The position numbers and the translations under genes are program-made. Below the pieces are notes generated by a model. That model searched no databases and was not told where the DNA came from. It worked only from the letters and a program-made list of their open reading frames with translations. From Pseudodesulfovibrio mercurii (GTDB taxonomy: Bacteria > Desulfobacterota > Desulfovibrionia > Desulfovibrionales > Desulfovibrionaceae): a stretch of DNA of 32,000 nucleotides. Location of the stretch: the NCBI RefSeq assembly GCF_000189295.2, contig NC_016803.1:2640001-2672000 (forward strand), given 5' to 3'. Below, in pieces: positions 3,701-10,859 of the stretch; within the stretch, counting starts at the first letter, position 1; each line of letters opens with the position of its first letter.

Positions 3701-5188
3701 ATGCTTTTCAATTCACCGGAATTCCTTTTCCTTTTCCTGCCTGCGGCCTGCCTGATCTTCTACTTCGCCCGGCGCGTGTCGCCCACGGCCCAGGTCGTCT
3801 CCATCATCGGGCTGTCGCTCTTCTTCTACGGCTACTGGCGCATCGAGTACCTGCCGGTGCTCCTGTTCAGCCTGGCGACCAACGGGCTGTTCGCCTTCCT
3901 GATCGGCCGCGCCCGGTCCGACGCCATGCGCAAAACCTGGCTCGTCCTCGGCGTGACCGTGGCCCTGTCCGTGCTCGGGTTCTACAAGTACACCCACTTC
4001 CTGATGGAGAACCTGAGCCTCCTGTTCGGGTTCGACTATGCCGGTCGGGCCGGGGAGATACCCATCGGCCTGTCCTTCTACACCTTCACGGCCATCGCCT
4101 TCCTGACCGACATCCACACCCGGCGCATCGAGACCTTCACCTGGCCCGAGTACGGGGCGACCATCACCTACTTCCCCCATCTGGTGGCCGGGCCGATTCT
4201 CTTCCATCACGACACCATCCCGCAGCTGCGCCTGCCGGGCGGCATCCGCCTGACCCCGGAGCGGGTCATGCTCTTCCTCTTCTTCTTTTCCGTGGGGCTG
4301 CTGAAGAAGACCGGGCTGGCCGACAACGTGGCGCACATCTCCGACCCGATCTTCGCCCAGGTGGCGGGCGGCGGCATCCCGAACCCCGGCCAGGCGTGGC
4401 GGGCGGCGCTCGGCTATTCCATGCAGCTCTATTTCGACTTTTCGGGCTATTCGGACATGGCCATCGGCCTGGGCTGCCTGCTCGGCATCCGCGTCCCGGC
4501 CAACTTCTATTCGCCCTACCGGTCCAGGAACATCGCCGAGTTCTGGCAGCGCTGGCACATCTCGCTCGGCTACTTCCTGCGCACCTACCTGTACATCCCG
4601 CTCGGCGGCAACCGCAAAGGGGCCACCCGCACCCTGGTCAACCTGTTCATCGTCTTCTTCCTGTGCGGACTGTGGCACGGCGCGGGCTGGACCTTCGTGG
4701 TCTGGGGGGTTATGCACGGCGCGGCCATGGTCGTGCAGCGCATCTTCTCCTCGCGGGTCCGGCTGCCGGACACCCGGCTGGTCGCGGTCTGCTCCATCCT
4801 GGTCACGTTCGTGTTCGCGGTCTTCGCCTGGGTGGTCTTCCGGGCCGATTCCTTCCATACGGCCTCGGTCATCATGCGGGCCATGGTCGGGGTGTCCGCG
4901 GGCCGGCTCCACAACCTGCCCAACCAGTACGTCGAGCTCTACCTCGGCCTGCTCATGCTCGTGGTCTGGCTCATGCCCAACACCGTGCAGATCATGCGCC
5001 GGTTCGACCCGGCCATCCTGCTCGGCAAGCGCAATGAATATCCCTTTGCCCGGCTGGTGCCCGCCGCCCTGCGCGAGGGCCACGGGTTCGCCTATGCCGC
5101 CGGGGCGTTTTCCGCCCTGGCCCTGGTCACGGGCGCGGTCTTCATGTTCGTCAACGGACAGGTCCGGTACCTGTATTTCGACTTCTGA
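3701..5188 (+). CDS. MBOAT-family membrane-bound O-acyltransferase (AlgI/DltB/PatA-like)
   Basis: Canonical N-terminus MLFNSPEFLFLFLP. Polytopic. Motifs FWQRWHISLG, YIPLGGNRKG and GLWHGAGW, including the conserved MBOAT His. Confidence 0.9.
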   Translation: MLFNSPEFLFLFLPAACLIFYFARRVSPTAQVVSIIGLSLFFYGYWRIEYLPVLLFSLATNGLFAFLIGRARSDAMRKTWLVLGVTVALSVLGFYKYTHFLMENLSLLFGFDYAGRAGEIPIGLSFYTFTAIAFLTDIHTRRIETFTWPEYGATITYFPHLVAGPILFHHDTIPQLRLPGGIRLTPERVMLFLFFFSVGLLKKTGLADNVAHISDPIFAQVAGGGIPNPGQAWRAALGYSMQLYFDFSGYSDMAIGLGCLLGIRVPANFYSPYRSRNIAEFWQRWHISLGYFLRTYLYIPLGGNRKGATRTLVNLFIVFFLCGLWHGAGWTFVVWGVMHGAAMVVQRIFSSRVRLPDTRLVAVCSILVTFVFAVFAWVVFRADSFHTASVIMRAMVGVSAGRLHNLPNQYVELYLGLLMLVVWLMPNTVQIMRRFDPAILLGKRNEYPFARLVPAALREGHGFAYAAGAFSALALVTGAVFMFVNGQVRYLYFDF

Positions 5189-6258
5189 TGACCAGGCGAT
5201 TCTTCATAACCTTCGCCCTGGTGGTCCTGGTCTACGGCGGATTCGCGGCGTTCAACTTCTCGCTCGTCCACCTGGCCGGGGAGACGCGCCCGTACGCGGA
5301 CATCGCCCGCGCCCAGCAGGAGCATCCGGACATCCTCTACGGCCCGCTCTTCAACAACGGGCACGCCGCCTACAAGTATGCGCTCATGGAGGCGCGGCCC
5401 CACGAGGTGGTGGTGGCCGGGTCGTCCCGCGCCCTGCAATTCCGGCAGGCCTTCTTCGCCGCGCCCATGGTCAACTGCGGCCGGATCATGTCCAGCGTGC
5501 GCACCGCGCTCAACTTCTTCGAGTACATGGAGAAACAGCCGCCCAAGACGATCCTGGTCACGGTCGATTTCTGGTGGTTCCGCGAGCCGCTGAACGAGGT
5601 GACCGGGGAGCACGTCTTCACCCTGCCCGATGGCACCGAGCGCAGCCTGGACATGTTCTACATGCCCGCCTGGTACGTGACCCGGGGCAAGATCGGCGTC
5701 GCCGGGGTGCTGGACAACGCCCCCCTGTTCCATGCGCGGTCCGGGCTGATCGGCCTGCGGGCCATCAGCCAGGGGGAGGGGTTCGAGGCCGACGGCGCGC
5801 ACCACGGGCCGCGAGGCACGCAGCGGACCCACGAGGACATGGTCGCCAACGTCAAGACGCGCATCGGGAAGACCGAATTCCGCTACAGCGACCGGCTCCA
5901 GACCGGGGCCCTGGACGCCTTCTTCGGCAAGGTGGCGGAGCTGGAGCGCCTGGGCCACACGGTGGTCGTGGTCTTTCCTCCGATCTCCCCGGCCTTCGAG
6001 GACGAACTGGCGACCAACAAGGGGTACGGATACGTGGCCAAGACCCTGGAGGACGCCGTTCGGCGCGGGGCCGTGGACATGCAGGACCCGGCCCGGCTCG
6101 GCCTGGCCCCGGCCGAGTTCCTGGATTCCCTGCATCCCACCACGCGCGGGGACGCCAGGCTTCTGCTCGAACTGGCCCGCCTGCATCCCGAACTGCGCCG
6201 GGTCCTGGACCTGGGCGCGGTGGAGCGGTTCCTGGCTTCGGGCCGGGAACGGCCGTAG
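5188..6258 (+). CDS. Membrane-anchored DltD/SGNH-like acyl-transfer partner of the MBOAT
   Basis: Its ATG overlaps the MBOAT TGA (TGATG). One N-terminal TM helix. A 'VVAGSSRA' Ser motif resembling DltD GSSE, and a C-terminal 'DSLH' (DxxH) like the SGNH catalytic pair. Confidence 0.65.
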   Translation: MTRRFFITFALVVLVYGGFAAFNFSLVHLAGETRPYADIARAQQEHPDILYGPLFNNGHAAYKYALMEARPHEVVVAGSSRALQFRQAFFAAPMVNCGRIMSSVRTALNFFEYMEKQPPKTILVTVDFWWFREPLNEVTGEHVFTLPDGTERSLDMFYMPAWYVTRGKIGVAGVLDNAPLFHARSGLIGLRAISQGEGFEADGAHHGPRGTQRTHEDMVANVKTRIGKTEFRYSDRLQTGALDAFFGKVAELERLGHTVVVVFPPISPAFEDELATNKGYGYVAKTLEDAVRRGAVDMQDPARLGLAPAEFLDSLHPTTRGDARLLLELARLHPELRRVLDLGAVERFLASGRERP

Positions 6259-6286: not shown

Positions 6287-6502
6287 TTATTTTCCGTCCG
6301 AAGCGGCGGCCTCGAGGTCGGTCAGCAGGGCGTCGAGGTCCAGCCCGTAGCGGGCGGCCGCGTCGGCCACGGTCTCGAACAGGGCCTTGCAGAGCAGGCA
6401 TTCGCCCGCCTGTTCGTCGCGGGCGCGGAAGACCGGTTCGGTGGCGCGGTACTGATGGACCACGTCCAGGAGGGTCATGTCCGGGGTGATGCGGCGGGTC
6501 AC
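6287..6502 (-). CDS. DUF1858-type (hybrid-cluster-protein-associated) redox disulfide domain protein
   Basis: 71 aa. 'ITPDMTLLDVVHQY...PVF' matches the family N-terminus as I remember it. CxxC present (CLLC). The GTG start overlaps the upstream stop (GTGA). Confidence 0.75.
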   Translation of the reverse strand: MTRRITPDMTLLDVVHQYRATEPVFRARDEQAGECLLCKALFETVADAAARYGLDLDALLTDLEAAASDGK

Positions 6503-7362
6503 GGCAGCTCCTTCATGGCCCGGGCCAGGGCCTGCGGGATGTGCGGGACCAGCTCGCCGATCTGCGAGGCCGGGGTTGGGCGGGCGGCCTCGCCCGCGTA
6601 GCGGTTGGCCTGGGCCGCCACGTGCGCGGCCCTGGGCGCTGACAGTCCGGCCGCCATCAGGGCGCAGGCCATGCCCGTGACCGTGTCGCCCGTGCCGCCC
6701 ATGGCCTCCATGGCCTCCACGGTGGGGCTTGAGACCTCGGCCAGGACCCCGGTGCGGTCCGCGATGCGGTCCACGCGTCCCTTGACCAGCAGGCAGCGGG
6801 CCGCGTTGTCGTTGCGGTAGGCGCGCTCGATGAGCTCGGGCCCCCGGTCCTCGTCCTGGAGGATGAAGCCGCGCGTGTAGAAGGGGTGCGGCGCGGCCTC
6901 GTCGGCCAGGAAGGCCAGCTCCCCGGCGTCGGGCGTGAACAGGGCGTATTCCCCGGCGAAGCCGCTCATCTTGGCCGCGTACATGAACCCGGCGTCCGCC
7001 ACCAGGGCGGGCGGCCCGGCCATGGCCTGGGCGGCCATGAGCACGCGGTTGTGCCAGTCCACGTCGGGCTGGAGGTAGTGGAAGGCCAGGACCGAGCAGG
7101 TCCGCGAGGGCAGGACCTCGGTCAGATGGCGGTACAGCTCGCGGCTGCCCCGGCCGAGCCCCTCGTCGCCCACCAGCAGGGCGTGGGGCGGGGGCGCGCC
7201 GAGAAAGGCGCAGGCCGCATCGGCCGCGGCCAGCAGGGCAGGGGTGCCCCGGTCCGGGGGCAGGGCGCGGCCGTCCACCATGAGCGCGCCGCGCGCAATC
7301 TCCACGGGCGCGTCCAGGACCGGCACGGCCGGGTCCGGGATGGTGCCGACTACGACGAGCAT
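6499..7362 (-). CDS. YjeF_C-like carbohydrate-kinase-fold protein (NAD(P)H-hydrate dehydratase family-like)
   Basis: Real start is the ATG at 7362 (MLVVVGT...). The 121 codons upstream in the ORF track are R/P/G junk overlapping the upstream gene. Motifs TPDAGELAFL, LLVKGRVDRI and GGTGDTVTG parallel YjeF_C TPHxGExxRL, LLKGxxDxI and GGxGDxLxG. Confidence 0.65.
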   Translation of the reverse strand: MLVVVGTIPDPAVPVLDAPVEIARGALMVDGRALPPDRGTPALLAAADAACAFLGAPPPHALLVGDEGLGRGSRELYRHLTEVLPSRTCSVLAFHYLQPDVDWHNRVLMAAQAMAGPPALVADAGFMYAAKMSGFAGEYALFTPDAGELAFLADEAAPHPFYTRGFILQDEDRGPELIERAYRNDNAARCLLVKGRVDRIADRTGVLAEVSSPTVEAMEAMGGTGDTVTGMACALMAAGLSAPRAAHVAAQANRYAGEAARPTPASQIGELVPHIPQALARAMKELP

Positions 7363-7901
7363 AACCGCACCATCTCCTCGTAGGCCAGCTCCAGGGCGTA
7401 GCCGCACAGGGTGTGGCCGATCTCCCTGGGGGCGGGGGCCTCGTCCAGGGTCAGGCCGATGAGCCGGGCCGCGATGTACGGCACGTCCGGGCAGCCGCCG
7501 CCGGAGACGTTGACGATGGCCCGGTTCCGCTTGTCCACGGTCAGCTTCATGTTGGCCGCGCGAACCATGAGATAGTCCCCGAAATCCTTGACCTGGAAGA
7601 GGTCCACCGGGGCGAGCAGGGGGCCGGTCACGGGCACGCTCTCCATGGGCGGAATCCCGGCCTCGGCCAGGACGCGCAGGATGTCGAGCTTCTCCATGAG
7701 CGGAAATTCGACCACCAGGTCGCACCCCCTCTGGATCTCCGGGGGCGGGCCCATGACCCGGATCTCCCGGCCGGACGCCTTGAGGAGCTTCTCGGCCCGG
7801 ATGACCTCGCTGGTGTGCTCGAACACGAGCAGGCCCCGGTCCGCGCGCACCTGGGCGCGCGGAGCCGAAGCCTTTCTTTTGAACAGGTTGCCAAGGGCCA
7901 A
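7350..7901 (-). CDS. DUF3343 (putative Se/S carrier-like) domain fused to an unassigned Cys-containing C-terminal domain
   Basis: N-terminal about 90 aa ('GLLVFEHTSEVIRAEKLLKASGREIRVMGPPPEIQRGCDLVVEF') fits DUF3343. C-terminal about 90 aa (..VSGGGCPDVPY..GHTLCGYA..) is not recognised. The TTG start at 7901 is 2 nt after the upstream stop. An alternative GTG lies at 7850. Confidence 0.6.
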   Translation of the reverse strand: MALGNLFKRKASAPRAQVRADRGLLVFEHTSEVIRAEKLLKASGREIRVMGPPPEIQRGCDLVVEFPLMEKLDILRVLAEAGIPPMESVPVTGPLLAPVDLFQVKDFGDYLMVRAANMKLTVDKRNRAIVNVSGGGCPDVPYIAARLIGLTLDEAPAPREIGHTLCGYALELAYEEMVRLCSS

Positions 7902-7903
7902 GT

Positions 7904-8125
7904 CTAGCCCCCGAGCAGTTTCAGGCGGTACTCGCCGCCCTCCTCGGTGATGGATTCCACCTTCCAGCCCTTGCCCTGGGCGGCACGGGCCACGTTTTCC
8001 TTGGACGCCTCGGTGTCCACCAGGACCTCAAGCTCGCCCGAGCCCATGGCCGCGATCTTGGACAGGGTATCCAGTACCGGCTGGGGGCAGGAAAGGCCCC
8101 GCGCGTCGACTAATTCACTCATCAT
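7904..8125 (-). CDS. TusA/SirA/YedF-like sulfurtransferase-fold protein
   Basis: 73 aa with 'DARGLSCPQPVL' (CPxP active-site motif) and typical size. Starts 6 nt after the yedE stop. The second ATG (8122) has better SD spacing. Confidence 0.85.
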   Translation of the reverse strand: MMSELVDARGLSCPQPVLDTLSKIAAMGSGELEVLVDTEASKENVARAAQGKGWKVESITEEGGEYRLKLLGG

Positions 8126-8131
8126 ATCCCC

Positions 8132-9217
8132 CTAGGCTGCTTTCTTGCGCATGGTCAGGCCGATGAACAGGCAGACCGCTAGGCCGATGAACACGGCGGC
8201 GATGCCGTGCGGGCCAACGCCCTTGGGCGAGCTGGCCAGGCCGAAGTTGTGGGCGAAACCCGCGCCCACGATCATGCCGAGGACGAACACGGCGGCGTCG
8301 CCGTCGCCCTCGCCCGCCATGAACAGCTGCCTGCCGGGGCAGCCGCCGGCCAGGGCGAAGCACAGCCCGGCCAGGACCATGCCCATGAAGTTCCACAGAC
8401 CCTGGGTGTGGGCCACGGGCTGGCCGTCGAAGCCCATGTGGAACTGGCCGAGGACCAGGTTCATCAGGAAGGCGGCCACCAGCAGGGCGATGACGCCCGA
8501 GAGCAGGTGGACCTGCTTGAACAGGATCAGGTCGCGGAAGGCGCCCATGGTGCAGAACCGGCTGCGCTGGGCGATGACGCCCACCACCAGGCCCACGCCG
8601 AGGGAGATGAACAGGGGCGCGTGCATGGCGCCGGGGCCCTTGAGGCTGTAGAAGAGCACCCCGGATTTGTCCGCGTCGGCCACCTGCGGGTAGATGAACA
8701 TGAGCACCAGGAACCCGGCCATGATCAGGGGCATGATCAGCCCCACGGACGAGTAGGTCTTCTGAGCCCGGCCCAGGTTGTACCCCTGGCGGAAGAACAG
8801 GGTGCCGATGCCGATGCCGACGATCAGCCCGGCGATGCCGAACAGGGCGTTCAGGTCGCCGCCGGCCAGCCGCAGGATGGCCCGCCACGGGCAGCCCAGG
8901 AAGACCAGGGCCCCGATCATGGCGAACACGCCGAGCACGAAGCGGACGATGGGCGCGGACCCGGCCCTGGGCCGGAAGTCGCTGCCCATGAAGGCCGCGC
9001 CCAGGGCGCCGAGCACGAAGCCGATGATCTCCGGGCGCATGTACTGGACCACGCCCGCCCGATGCAGCCCCACGGAACCGGCGATGTCGCGCTCGAAACA
9101 GGCCACGCAGATGCCCATGTTCCCGGGGTTGCCCAGGTACTGCAACAGGGCCGCCAGGCAGCCGATGACGAGCCCGACGGAAATGATGCCTTTCCGTGAG
9201 GCGAAAAAGTTGGTCAT
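8132..9217 (-). CDS. yedE: YedE-family selenium/sulfur-compound transport membrane protein
   Basis: Polytopic. Conserved Cys motifs GICVACFERD, RSRFCTMGAFRD and GGCPGRQL. The ATG at 9217 is preceded by AAGGAGGAGG. The longer track ORF (to 9271) lacks an SD. Confidence 0.85.
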   Translation of the reverse strand: MTNFFASRKGIISVGLVIGCLAALLQYLGNPGNMGICVACFERDIAGSVGLHRAGVVQYMRPEIIGFVLGALGAAFMGSDFRPRAGSAPIVRFVLGVFAMIGALVFLGCPWRAILRLAGGDLNALFGIAGLIVGIGIGTLFFRQGYNLGRAQKTYSSVGLIMPLIMAGFLVLMFIYPQVADADKSGVLFYSLKGPGAMHAPLFISLGVGLVVGVIAQRSRFCTMGAFRDLILFKQVHLLSGVIALLVAAFLMNLVLGQFHMGFDGQPVAHTQGLWNFMGMVLAGLCFALAGGCPGRQLFMAGEGDGDAAVFVLGMIVGAGFAHNFGLASSPKGVGPHGIAAVFIGLAVCLFIGLTMRKKAA

Positions 9218-9311
9218 ACCTCCTCCTTGTGTAAAAAGAACCAAACTTCCCCCAATTCTGGTACGAAACATAGAGGAATCCAGCAGGTTGAACCAATCTT
9301 TTTCTATATTT

Positions 9312-9341
9312 GGTATAGGCTTGATCTATAGATATTCTCAA
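9312..9341 (-). promoter_or_regulatory. Candidate promoter of the yedE operon with an embedded palindrome
   Basis: On the minus strand: TTGAGA (9341-9336), an 18-nt spacer, then TATACC (9317-9312). The palindrome ATCTATAGAT (9324-9333) sits in the spacer. AT-rich patch about 90 nt upstream of the ATG at 9217. Confidence 0.25.
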
Positions 9342-9461
9342 TGTGAGGGGGGCAATCCCCGGCCGCCGGTGGGAGTGGGCGCGATGTGCGCGGAACGGTG
9401 GGCGAGCGGGGGCGGGGGAGTGCTGCGGAGGGGCCCGGCGCGGTCGCATCGGGCCCGACCG

Positions 9462-9497
9462 GAGCGTCGGCCCGAGCGTCGGCCCGAGCGTCGGCCG
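9462..9497. repeat. Tandem 12-mer repeat, 3 copies (GAGCGTCGGCCC)
   Basis: Units at 9462-9473, 9474-9485 and 9486-9497 (last base differs). Intergenic, just downstream of the peptidase stop at 9515. Confidence 0.85.
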
Positions 9498-9514
9498 GAT
9501 GCGTGCGCGGCCGG

Positions 9515-10447
9515 CTAGTTCTCGATGTCGGACAGGGTCTGGCGGAAGGTCTCGATCTGCGGGCCGCCCAGGGACACGGCCTTTTGCGCGGCCTGCAGGG
9601 CCTCGTCGCGGCGGCCGAGCTCGTCCAGGACAAAGGCCAGGTTGTTGAAGGCGATGCCGCTGTCCGGCTTGACCTCGGTGGCCCGGCGGAAAGCCTTGGC
9701 CGCGCCCTCGGCATTGCCCAGGGAGTAGCGGGCGTTGCCCAGGCCGATCCAGGCGTCGTGGCTCCGCGGCCAGCGGGCGGCGGCCGCGGCGTAGGCCTCC
9801 TCGGCGGCGGCCCACTGCCTGGCCCGCTCCAGGCCCACGGCCCCGTTCAGCCATTCCGTCTCCTTCGCCGTGACGGGCAGGCGCGACGGCGGCAGCACGA
9901 GCAGTCCCCAGAAGTCCGGGCCCCAGGTGTTCTCGAAGACCCGCCAGGGGGTGCGCCGGTTCCGGGTCAGGCCCGAGTTGAGCAGGATCTCGTCGGCGTC
10001 GCGGTCCAGGCCCACGACCACGGCGTAGTGCCACACCGGGTACCAGGACAGCCCCAGGTTCTGGAGGACCACCACCGGATTGCCCCCGGCGATCTCGGCT
10101 GACAGCCGGTCCGCGCCGTGGATGACGTAGGCCATGCGCCCGTTACGGCGGGCGGCGGTGATCATGTCGGGCTGGATGCTGCCCTTTTGCGACGGGGTGT
10201 AGACCTGCGCGGTCAGGTCGTCGGGCGTGACCGGCAGTCCGCTCCAGGTCATGGCCATGGCCAGGGCGGCCGGGCCGCACTGGTAGTCCTCCTGGGGATA
10301 GAAGGGCACGTCGAGCACGCGGGTCAGGGGAGCGCCCGTGGGCGAGGGCGGCATGACGCCGCCGTAGAGGGAGCAGCCGGTGGTCAGGAAGAGCAACAAG
10401 AGACAGGCGACGGCCATGCGGCCGCCGCCTGAAGGGATGTGCGACAT
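9515..10447 (-). CDS. PA2778-family C39-like cysteine peptidase lipoprotein with C-terminal TPR repeats
   Basis: Lipobox LTTGC. Papain/C39-like 'YQCGPAALAMA' (Cys) and 'WHYAVVVG' (His). C-terminal TPR-like helices (AWIGLGNARYSLGN..AFNNLAFVL). Confidence 0.8.
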   Translation of the reverse strand: MSHIPSGGGRMAVACLLLLFLTTGCSLYGGVMPPSPTGAPLTRVLDVPFYPQEDYQCGPAALAMAMTWSGLPVTPDDLTAQVYTPSQKGSIQPDMITAARRNGRMAYVIHGADRLSAEIAGGNPVVVLQNLGLSWYPVWHYAVVVGLDRDADEILLNSGLTRNRRTPWRVFENTWGPDFWGLLVLPPSRLPVTAKETEWLNGAVGLERARQWAAAEEAYAAAAARWPRSHDAWIGLGNARYSLGNAEGAAKAFRRATEVKPDSGIAFNNLAFVLDELGRRDEALQAAQKAVSLGGPQIETFRQTLSDIEN

Positions 10448-10457
10448 TTCGCTTCCG

Positions 10458-10859
10458 TTACTTGGCCTTCTTCACGAACGGGAAGACGTCCGTGGCTCCG
10501 GCCATGTCCGTGATGAGCAGGACGATGAAGACGAAGAGCGCGGCACCGATGATGATGCCGAAGAAGCTGCCGCCCGCGGGCATGTCGGCCACGTGGTCGG
10601 CGATCTGGTTGATCTCCGAGTCGGACAGGGCGCTGACGCGCTGTTCCACCTCGGACACGGACAGCCCCTTGCTCTCCAGGACCTGACGCACGTCGTCGCG
10701 CTGGAGCTGAGCCAGGACCATGGCGCGGTTCTGCGCGTTGTGGCTGGCGGCCAGGGCGGCCTCTGTGGACACCAGACCCGCGCGAGCCACGGAGACGTTC
10801 AGGGTCAGCAGGGACAACACAACGAAAAGACAGACGAATTTGCTGAACTTATTGTACAT
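10458..10859 (-). CDS. PA2779-family protein (signal peptide, helical region, GG site, C-terminal TM segment)
   Basis: 133 aa. The ATG is preceded by GAGGAGGG. Signal peptide ends ..VARA. 'LSDSEINQIADHVADMPAGG' is followed by a hydrophobic tail. Sits 10 nt upstream of the peptidase gene. Confidence 0.7.
   Translation of the reverse strand: MYNKFSKFVCLFVVLSLLTLNVSVARAGLVSTEAALAASHNAQNRAMVLAQLQRDDVRQVLESKGLSVSEVEQRVSALSDSEINQIADHVADMPAGGSFFGIIIGAALFVFIVLLITDMAGATDVFPFVKKAK

Follow-up and report, generated by a model that had tools for sequence, protein, structure and literature searches.

A YedE operon of Pseudodesulfovibrio mercurii pairs a two-domain cysteine carrier with a ribokinase-fold protein and belongs to a selenium-linked gene module

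The window analysed here, a 32,000-nucleotide (nt) stretch of contig NC_016803.1 of Pseudodesulfovibrio mercurii, contains a compact minus-strand gene cluster encoding, in order, YedE, a TusA-like protein, a carrier protein with a DUF3343 domain (hereafter D), a ribokinase-fold protein (hereafter K) and a small DUF1858-like protein with a CxxC motif. We propose that these five genes probably constitute one operon for selenium acquisition and hand-over to SelD, in which K would carry out an ATP-dependent step on selenium held by D. Comparative evidence establishes the identities of the parts, the strict coupling of D and K, their occurrence as fusions, the retention of kinase motifs in K and the linkage of the module to selD and LysR genes; everything that we say about function draws on sequences, predicted structures and gene context. 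The way in which prokaryotes acquire selenium specifically and bring it to selenophosphate synthetase is not settled, and according to a 2026 review a specific high-affinity system for selenium transport has yet to be identified (PMC13188914).

A conserved carrier-kinase pair

We compared gene neighbourhoods in two sets of loci, each sampled from the best 80 matches of a scan. The close set came from a scan in which each GTDB species was represented by one genome, the distant set from a metagenome scan seeded with distant members of the K family (the seed is approximately 30% identical to the window K, and the loci are 38-46% identical to the seed). Only loci with enough flanking DNA were counted, giving 48 close and 34 distant loci. 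Across all 82, which span several phyla, K follows D without exception, and YedE and TusA accompany the pair in 75, in two gene orders. Close relatives usually show the order YedE-TusA-D-K, with YedE, TusA and D each present in 48 of 48 loci and a DUF1858-like gene directly after K in 22; the distant subgroup usually shows YedE-D-K-TusA, with D in all 34 loci, YedE and TusA each in 27 and a DUF1858-like gene in none (this last census used the single window sequence as query). Since the same genes recur in the same order in 48 of 48 related loci, the arrangement is not due to chance, and since the flanking genes vary between loci, the linkage is not merely shared ancestry of a large block. The suggestion in an earlier note on this stretch, made from the sequence alone, that the kinase-fold gene is an integral and non-housekeeping part of the operon is borne out by this adjacency. 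The GTDB species scan found K relatives in at least 591 species, chiefly Desulfobacterota along with some Nitrospirota, Omnitrophota and Leptospirales, and at 90% identity the two families are of similar size (3808 clusters for D, 4121 for K).

D and K also occur as one protein. Five distinct 50%-identity clusters (P0122, P0123, P0128, P0129 and P0130) are single polypeptides in which D is joined to K by a low-complexity linker. The AlphaFold model of P0129, for which the alignment input consisted of natural fusions plus unpaired rows, reached a mean predicted local distance difference test score (pLDDT) of 90.6 and a predicted template modelling score (pTM) of 0.89. For a protein of two modules, this pTM indicates that the position of D relative to K is predicted with confidence, and P0129 is thus predicted to form a single compact unit. 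The module varies in other ways: YedE may be split, TusA genes may stand in tandem, and some D-K-selD operons have no transporter nearby. In three metagenome loci (L114, 3944-4863; L151, 6-897; L164, 3937-4964), YedE is represented by two or three adjacent half-size genes beside D-K, resembling the split YedE of archaea (Lin et al. 2015, PMC5322559).

The nearest homologues of K, 86-88% identical, are found in Pseudodesulfovibrio and in Desulfovibrio sp. Fe33, and databases name such proteins NAD(P)H-hydrate dehydratase or sugar kinase. K passes the Carb_kinase profile PF01256 (39 bits, gathering threshold 27), yet only over profile positions 94-224 of 242. Its scores lie far under the cutoffs of the NAD(P)HX dehydratase model TIGR00196 (35.3 against 129.85 bits, residues 120-260 only) and the NCBIfam ThiM model (20 against 180 bits), and NCBIfam holds no model for either K or D. 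A sequence search of all PDB chains with K returned TM0922 as its sole match (E = 0.01), and a family profile built from 26 diverse members matched ThiM (3dzv, 1.6e-6) slightly better than Nnr (5.5e-5). These profile matches are confined to the C-terminal ATP-binding part around GGTGD, that to ThiM covering residues 163-265. The TPHPGE of TM0922 aligns with TPDxGE in the K family, which therefore lacks a TPHxGE motif; the Asp of TPD is nearly invariant in set A1 and invariant in set A2.

The AlphaFold model of K is a confident one (pLDDT 94.2, pTM 0.93). Foldseek comparison with the PDB gave best TM-scores of 0.55-0.62 over Nnr, ThiD, PfkB-type sugar kinases, PdxK and ThiM; the top match was Nnr TM0922 (E 4e-8, query TM-score 0.59-0.62), with the other families scoring about the same. 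A Foldseek probability of 1.0 to many members, together with the invariant GGTGD, places the predicted three-layer alpha/beta fold of K within the ribokinase-like superfamily, and the model carries a small beta-hairpin unit or lid (strands 15-33) after the first strand. A HMMER scan of 1.84 billion cluster representatives recovered only 272 clusters at 50% identity with E ≤ 1e-3, so the K family forms a compact group, clearly distinct from canonical Nnr, which is a very large family. One sequence from this family scan, P0196 (419 amino acids, aa), joins an 80-residue K-family stretch to a [NiFeSe]-hydrogenase large-subunit segment (PF00374) and is probably the product of a metagenome gene that is chimeric or was mis-called.

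Conservation within K was assessed in the 26 diverse members, which are 30-56% identical. The invariant or nearly invariant residues are DAG (122-124), K130, P143-D144, E147, H158-P159, K193-G194, D197, E218, GGTGD (221-225) and N252-R253, the GGTGD catalytic motif itself being invariant. Such a pattern is typical of an active enzyme, here one with the ribokinase-type catalytic Asp. Judged by profiles and predicted structure, K constitutes a new ribokinase-fold ATP-binding family, distinct from ordinary NAD(P)HX dehydratases. The label YjeF_C-like used in the earlier note overstates the relationship: the likeness lies at the level of the ribokinase superfamily, ThiM is as close as Nnr, and TPD stands where Nnr has TPH. 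The same note had allowed that the protein might prove to be an ordinary housekeeping NAD(P)HX dehydratase occurring away from YedE; with a TIGR00196 score of 35 against 130 bits and D adjoining K at every counted locus, it is not, and the repair step that the note had considered finds no support.

D matches the Se_S_carrier/DUF3343 profile PF11823 at 81.6 bits (threshold 25). Its C-terminal domain is DUF8182 (PF26554), an assignment precomputed on all of the homologues listed, so that the description "DUF3343 fusion" was correct for the first domain but too narrow: the partner is a distinct domain with invariant cysteines of its own. Among 78 orthologues, three cysteines are invariant, namely Cys60 in DUF3343, Cys137 in SGGGCPDVP and Cys166 in TLCGY. 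A fourth, Cys181, is 92% conserved, and its TGC codon overlaps the ATG of K (7350-7362); loci lacking it have a TGA stop at position 181 instead, in an ATGA overlap with the K start. Its conservation is therefore partly forced by the overlap, and we did not count it as functional. A selenocysteine form of D was considered and rejected: when 167 loci were translated with TGA as selenocysteine, the only TGA within the alignment was that at position 181, which is the D stop. We likewise ruled out DUF8182 as a duplicated DUF3343 or TusA domain, since hhalign detected no homology to either (probability below 3%); the likeness to TusA is limited to a motif (IVNiSGGGCPD against tVDARGLSCPQ).

Profile searches of the kind that the earlier note had proposed gave matches to TIGR04112 for YedE, PF01206 for the TusA-like protein, PF11823 for D and, over part of the profile, PF01256 for K. 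YedE scores 490.6 bits on TIGR04112, the equivalog model for a putative selenium transporter (cutoff 200), against 25.7 and 32.2 bits on the TsuA models NF041049 (cutoff 645) and NF052577 (cutoff 400). Its conserved cysteines in 70 orthologues are C37/C40 (CVAC), C109, C222, C293 and C349. The TusA-like protein scores 69.3 bits on PF01206 (threshold 28.6), and Cys13 of its CPQP motif is invariant in 71 orthologues. It does not reach the cutoff of TIGR03527, the long two-domain YedF model of 194 aa (52 against 110 bits), the match being limited to the N-terminal domain (profile positions 1-64).

The fifth protein falls just under the cutoffs of both DUF1858 in Pfam (27.6 against 32.2 bits) and the hybrid-cluster-protein-associated redox disulfide model TIGR03980 (39.2 against 44.95 bits). 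Its CxxC (C35 and C38), the CLLC of the earlier note, is invariant in 27 orthologues. As its gene is present in only some of the close loci and none of the distant ones, the thiol-disulfide step that the note had taken to be built in is better described as accessory; the protein is plausibly an optional thiol/disulfide partner. At one locus (L021, 9977-11098), K and the DUF1858-like protein are fused in frame into a polypeptide of 374 aa, which may reflect either a genuine fusion or a frameshift in the assembly.

Genomic association with selD and selenium-type LysR genes

The selD gene lies within 3.5 kb downstream of the module in 11 of 48 close and 14 of 32 distant loci, that is, in 25 of the 80 with enough downstream DNA, usually 84-600 nt past the module and on the same strand. 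LysR_Sec_metab genes were found upstream in 12 of 31 distant loci and in 14 of 76 overall. Both censuses used as queries two proteins of a single locus, L166, where a divergent LysR gene flanking the module matches the selenium-metabolism model NF040786 (271 against 250 bits) and a selD gene follows the module (360 bits on TIGR00476; 307 against 299 bits on NF002098). At two further loci (L153, 6393-9942; L092, 4842-8408), a divergent LysR gene is followed by D-K-selD with no YedE nearby. These minimal operons show that D and K are linked to SelD and not to the transporter. At one Chloroflexota locus, the module sits beside genes for formate dehydrogenase subunits, FdhE and Tat components.

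These neighbours agree with the published association of YedE, YedF and DUF3343 with SelD-containing genomes (Lin et al. 2015, PMC5322559), and the SelD-linked association of our module is seen through the selD and LysR neighbours of other loci and not inside the window itself. The earlier reading of the operon as a dedicated, selenium-linked module gains from the presence of both genes beside it in many loci, and the downstream selD counts speak against the caveat that the cluster might show no phylogenetic association with selenium utilisation.

A proposed route for selenium and its alternatives

On this evidence we favour the following route. YedE would import a selenium species across the membrane, and the TusA-like protein would accept the selenium on the cysteine of its CPxP motif and pass it to the cysteines of D, in DUF3343 and DUF8182. 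K would then dock on D, and ATP-driven processing of the carrier-bound selenium would lead to its delivery to SelD. Since K has a predicted complete kinase site and no conserved cysteine in the orthologue alignment, we infer that the group on which it acts is presented by D. Its reaction might be the phosphorylation of a selenium-oxygen or perselenide group as a leaving group, or it might drive release or reduction. The small CxxC protein may supply or reset thiols and disulfides in some lineages.

In this route, the succession of transfers, the form in which selenium travels and the reaction of K are inferred from sequence and models. Several points weigh against the proposal. The 32-kb window holds no selD, no other selenocysteine-machinery gene and, beyond the operon, no further selenium gene. 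Lacking a conserved cysteine, K would be unable to carry selenium covalently. Finally, deletion of YedE in Methanococcus gave no clear selenium-transport phenotype (PMC11097638).

If K is not acting on carrier-bound selenium, it could be a small-molecule kinase of the ThiM/ThiD/PdxK type that phosphorylates a hydroxyl of an organic selenium compound or cofactor precursor imported by YedE, with D no more than a neighbouring chaperone. The GGTGD catalytic Asp is the usual base for hydroxyl phosphorylation, the closest PDB profile match is hydroxyethylthiazole kinase, the fold matches include ThiD, PdxK and PfkB sugar kinases, and K has no cysteine of its own. We consider this unlikely, as the repeated D-K fusions, the confident single-unit model and the adjacency at 82 of 82 loci point to a protein partner and not to a free metabolite, no metabolite-biosynthesis genes travel with the module in the loci examined, and D-K-selD operons occur without a transporter. 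The strict pairing, the fusions and the joint model would also suit a nucleotide-binding scaffold or gate, in which K senses ATP/ADP and controls the release of selenium from D to SelD with no selenium chemistry, as would the missing cysteine. Against this improbable alternative stands the invariance or near-invariance, at 30-56% identity, of GGTGD with its Asp, KGxxD, D122, K130, D144, E147, H158 and R253, which is typical of an active enzyme.

That the module handles sulfur instead, as thiosulfate or persulfide and by analogy with YeeE/YeeD or the YTD cluster of sulfate reducers, we regard as quite improbable. Most of its hosts are Desulfobacterota and Nitrospirota that take part in sulfur cycling, YedE and TsuA are distant relatives, the TusA and DUF3343 families include sulfur carriers (PMC5322559), and the YTD cluster shares the logic of transporter, TusA and transferase (PMC13293266). 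The 490 bits of YedE on the selenium-type TIGR04112 against 26-32 on the TsuA models, the selD and LysR_Sec_metab genes as direct neighbours in many loci, and the absence of DsrE-like genes from the operon all speak for selenium. It is very improbable that K is a divergent but true ATP/ADP-dependent NAD(P)HX dehydratase repairing nicotinamide cofactors damaged in selenium reduction. The pass on PF01256 (39 against 27 bits), the top Foldseek match to Nnr TM0922 and the database name would fit such an enzyme; the low TIGR00196 score, an alignment restricted to the C-terminal ATP half where ThiM does as well or better, TPD in place of TPH and a TM-score of only about 0.6 do not, and strict pairing or fusion with a cysteine carrier would have no rationale in cofactor repair.

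Returning to the proposal that K acts on selenium held by D, a bolder form of it, which we put forward as speculative and doubtful, is that K founds a new enzyme class performing ATP-dependent chemistry on protein-bound selenium. K might phosphorylate a perselenide or selenenic species on Cys137 or Cys166 of DUF8182, and this might yield selenophosphate, or else an activated selenium intermediate that SelD would receive directly. If so, K would be the missing specific, energy-driven step by which anaerobes pick nanomolar selenium from a vast excess of sulfur.

Relation to known systems

The module extends the predicted YedE/YedF/DUF3343 selenium set (PMC5322559), with which it shares a TIGR04112 transporter, a TusA-like CPxP protein, a DUF3343 protein with a conserved cysteine and the association with selD and LysR_Se; FdhT/FdhU of Campylobacter, cited in the same paper, belong with this comparison. 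It differs in that DUF3343 is extended by DUF8182 with two more invariant cysteines, that D is obligatorily paired, and sometimes fused, with a ribokinase-fold protein for which the published model has no counterpart, and that an optional fifth member, the DUF1858-like CxxC protein, is added. The text of Lin et al. 2015 (PMC5322559) does not mention the kinase, recent reviews confine the candidate set to YedE, YedF, DUF3343 and LysR_Se and regard no specific selenium transporter as established, and our literature search found no paper connecting the K family with selenium, in keeping with the remark of the earlier note that the kinase-fold member had no described role in selenium or sulfur trafficking.

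K shares with the NAD(P)HX dehydratases (Nnr, YxkO of B. subtilis and TM0922) the ribokinase-like fold, the GGTGD anion-hole/catalytic motif, the KG..D strand and the pass on PF01256. Unlike them, it has an N-terminal (substrate) half that does not align, TPD for TPH, a predicted beta-hairpin lid, a TM-score of about 0.6 and a score far under TIGR00196, and in the 82 loci it is never free-standing but always beside D. With ThiM and ThiD it has in common a comparable fold and size, ThiM 3dzv being the best PDB profile match, whereas only residues 163-265 match, the ThiM model gives 20 against 180 bits and the K locus has no thiamine context.

Two sulfur systems run parallel to the module, which is a member of neither. 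The YTD cluster, now read as YeeE-TusA-DsrEFH type II (PMC13293266), occurs in the same phyla and likewise places a YeeE/YedE membrane protein, TusA and a further cysteine transferase in one cluster, but it has another YedE orthogroup and DsrEFH type II (for sulfur, feeding DsrC/DsrAB), and neither a kinase nor selD linkage. We rejected the operon as a YTD sulfur-disproportionation/oxidation cluster because YTD carries DsrEFH type II and nothing in the operon matches the DsrE family. In YeeE/YeeD (TsuA/TsuB), similarly, a TusA-like protein in the cytoplasm works with a membrane protein from the superfamily of YedE; there the substrate is thiosulfate and a carrier-kinase pair is absent, and the window YedE scores 26-32 bits on TsuA models with cutoffs of 400-645.

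To the candidate set the operon adds two elements that occur in at least about 590 species: an obligatory enzyme partner with an intact predicted kinase site and, on the carrier, a further domain with cysteines. D plus K, or their natural fusions, offer selenium biochemistry a concrete, widespread and testable enzyme-carrier pair. Moreover, the systematic mis-annotation of K as "NAD(P)H-hydrate dehydratase" or "sugar kinase" touches thousands of database entries.

Operon layout, leader and surroundings

Features of the operon are listed in Table 1. Read base by base, the junctions comprise a 6-nt gap between YedE and TusA, a 2-nt gap between TusA and D, a 13-nt overlap of D and K (ATGCTCGTCGTAG) and a 4-nt overlap, GTGA, of K and the DUF1858-like gene. 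The five minus-strand reading frames, their coordinates and these spacings agree with the earlier description, and each of the motifs quoted there (CPQP, TPDAGELAFL, LLVKGRVDRI, GGTGDTVTG and CLLC) was found in the operon proteins. A convergent plus-strand gene (5188-6258) borders the operon on its 3' side and a 297-nt, in part AT-rich, intergenic region on its 5' side.

Table 1 Positions of the operon genes and leader in the window
Feature	Position	Strand	Length	Description
YedE gene	8132-9217	(-)	361 aa	ATG at 9217, AGGAGG before the ATG
TusA/YedF-like gene	7904-8125	(-)	73 aa	Single-domain putative sulfur/selenium transferase, CPQP
D gene	7350-7901	(-)	183 aa	DUF3343/Se_S_carrier + DUF8182 carrier protein
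K gene	6499-7362	(-)	287 aa	ATG start; ribokinase-fold ATP-binding family
DUF1858-like CxxC gene	6287-6502	(-)	71 aa	GTG start; accessory module member
Operon leader (intergenic), probable promoter region	9218..9514	(-)		Putative regulatory role

Within the leader, an AT-rich island (9232-9345) lies directly 5' of YedE in a genome of 67% GC, the window itself being approximately 67% GC. The island contains a perfect 10-nt palindrome, ATCTATAGAT, at 9324-9333, near which lies a CTATA...TATAG inverted repeat; the island may be an operator or promoter. Alignment of upstream regions with three Desulfovibrionaceae relatives revealed common blocks (CATTGA, TCTAT and GATTGGTTC), which are short. The leader contains no match to the sigma-70 consensus, promoter and terminator scans of the operon surroundings were empty, and Rfam and tRNA scans gave no match for the operon or its vicinity. 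At the far end of the upstream intergenic region, just 3' of the stop of a C39-like/TPR gene, a 12-nt unit, GGCCGACGCTCG in minus-strand reading, is repeated in three tandem copies (9461-9496).

The same-strand genes upstream of the operon (9515-10859, minus strand) encode this peptidase C39-like/TPR protein and a DUF6627 protein, and their adjacency to the module is not kept in other loci. Other neighbours in the window include MBOAT, RlmN, AFOR and UbiD/UbiX-like genes. At the start of the window, a phage head-to-tail connector (portal) protein (PF12236, 234 bits) is encoded at positions 3-968 of the plus strand, cut by the window edge so that its C-terminal two-thirds are present, and followed by two unannotated open reading frames as far as approximately 2805; this segment is probably the end of a prophage.

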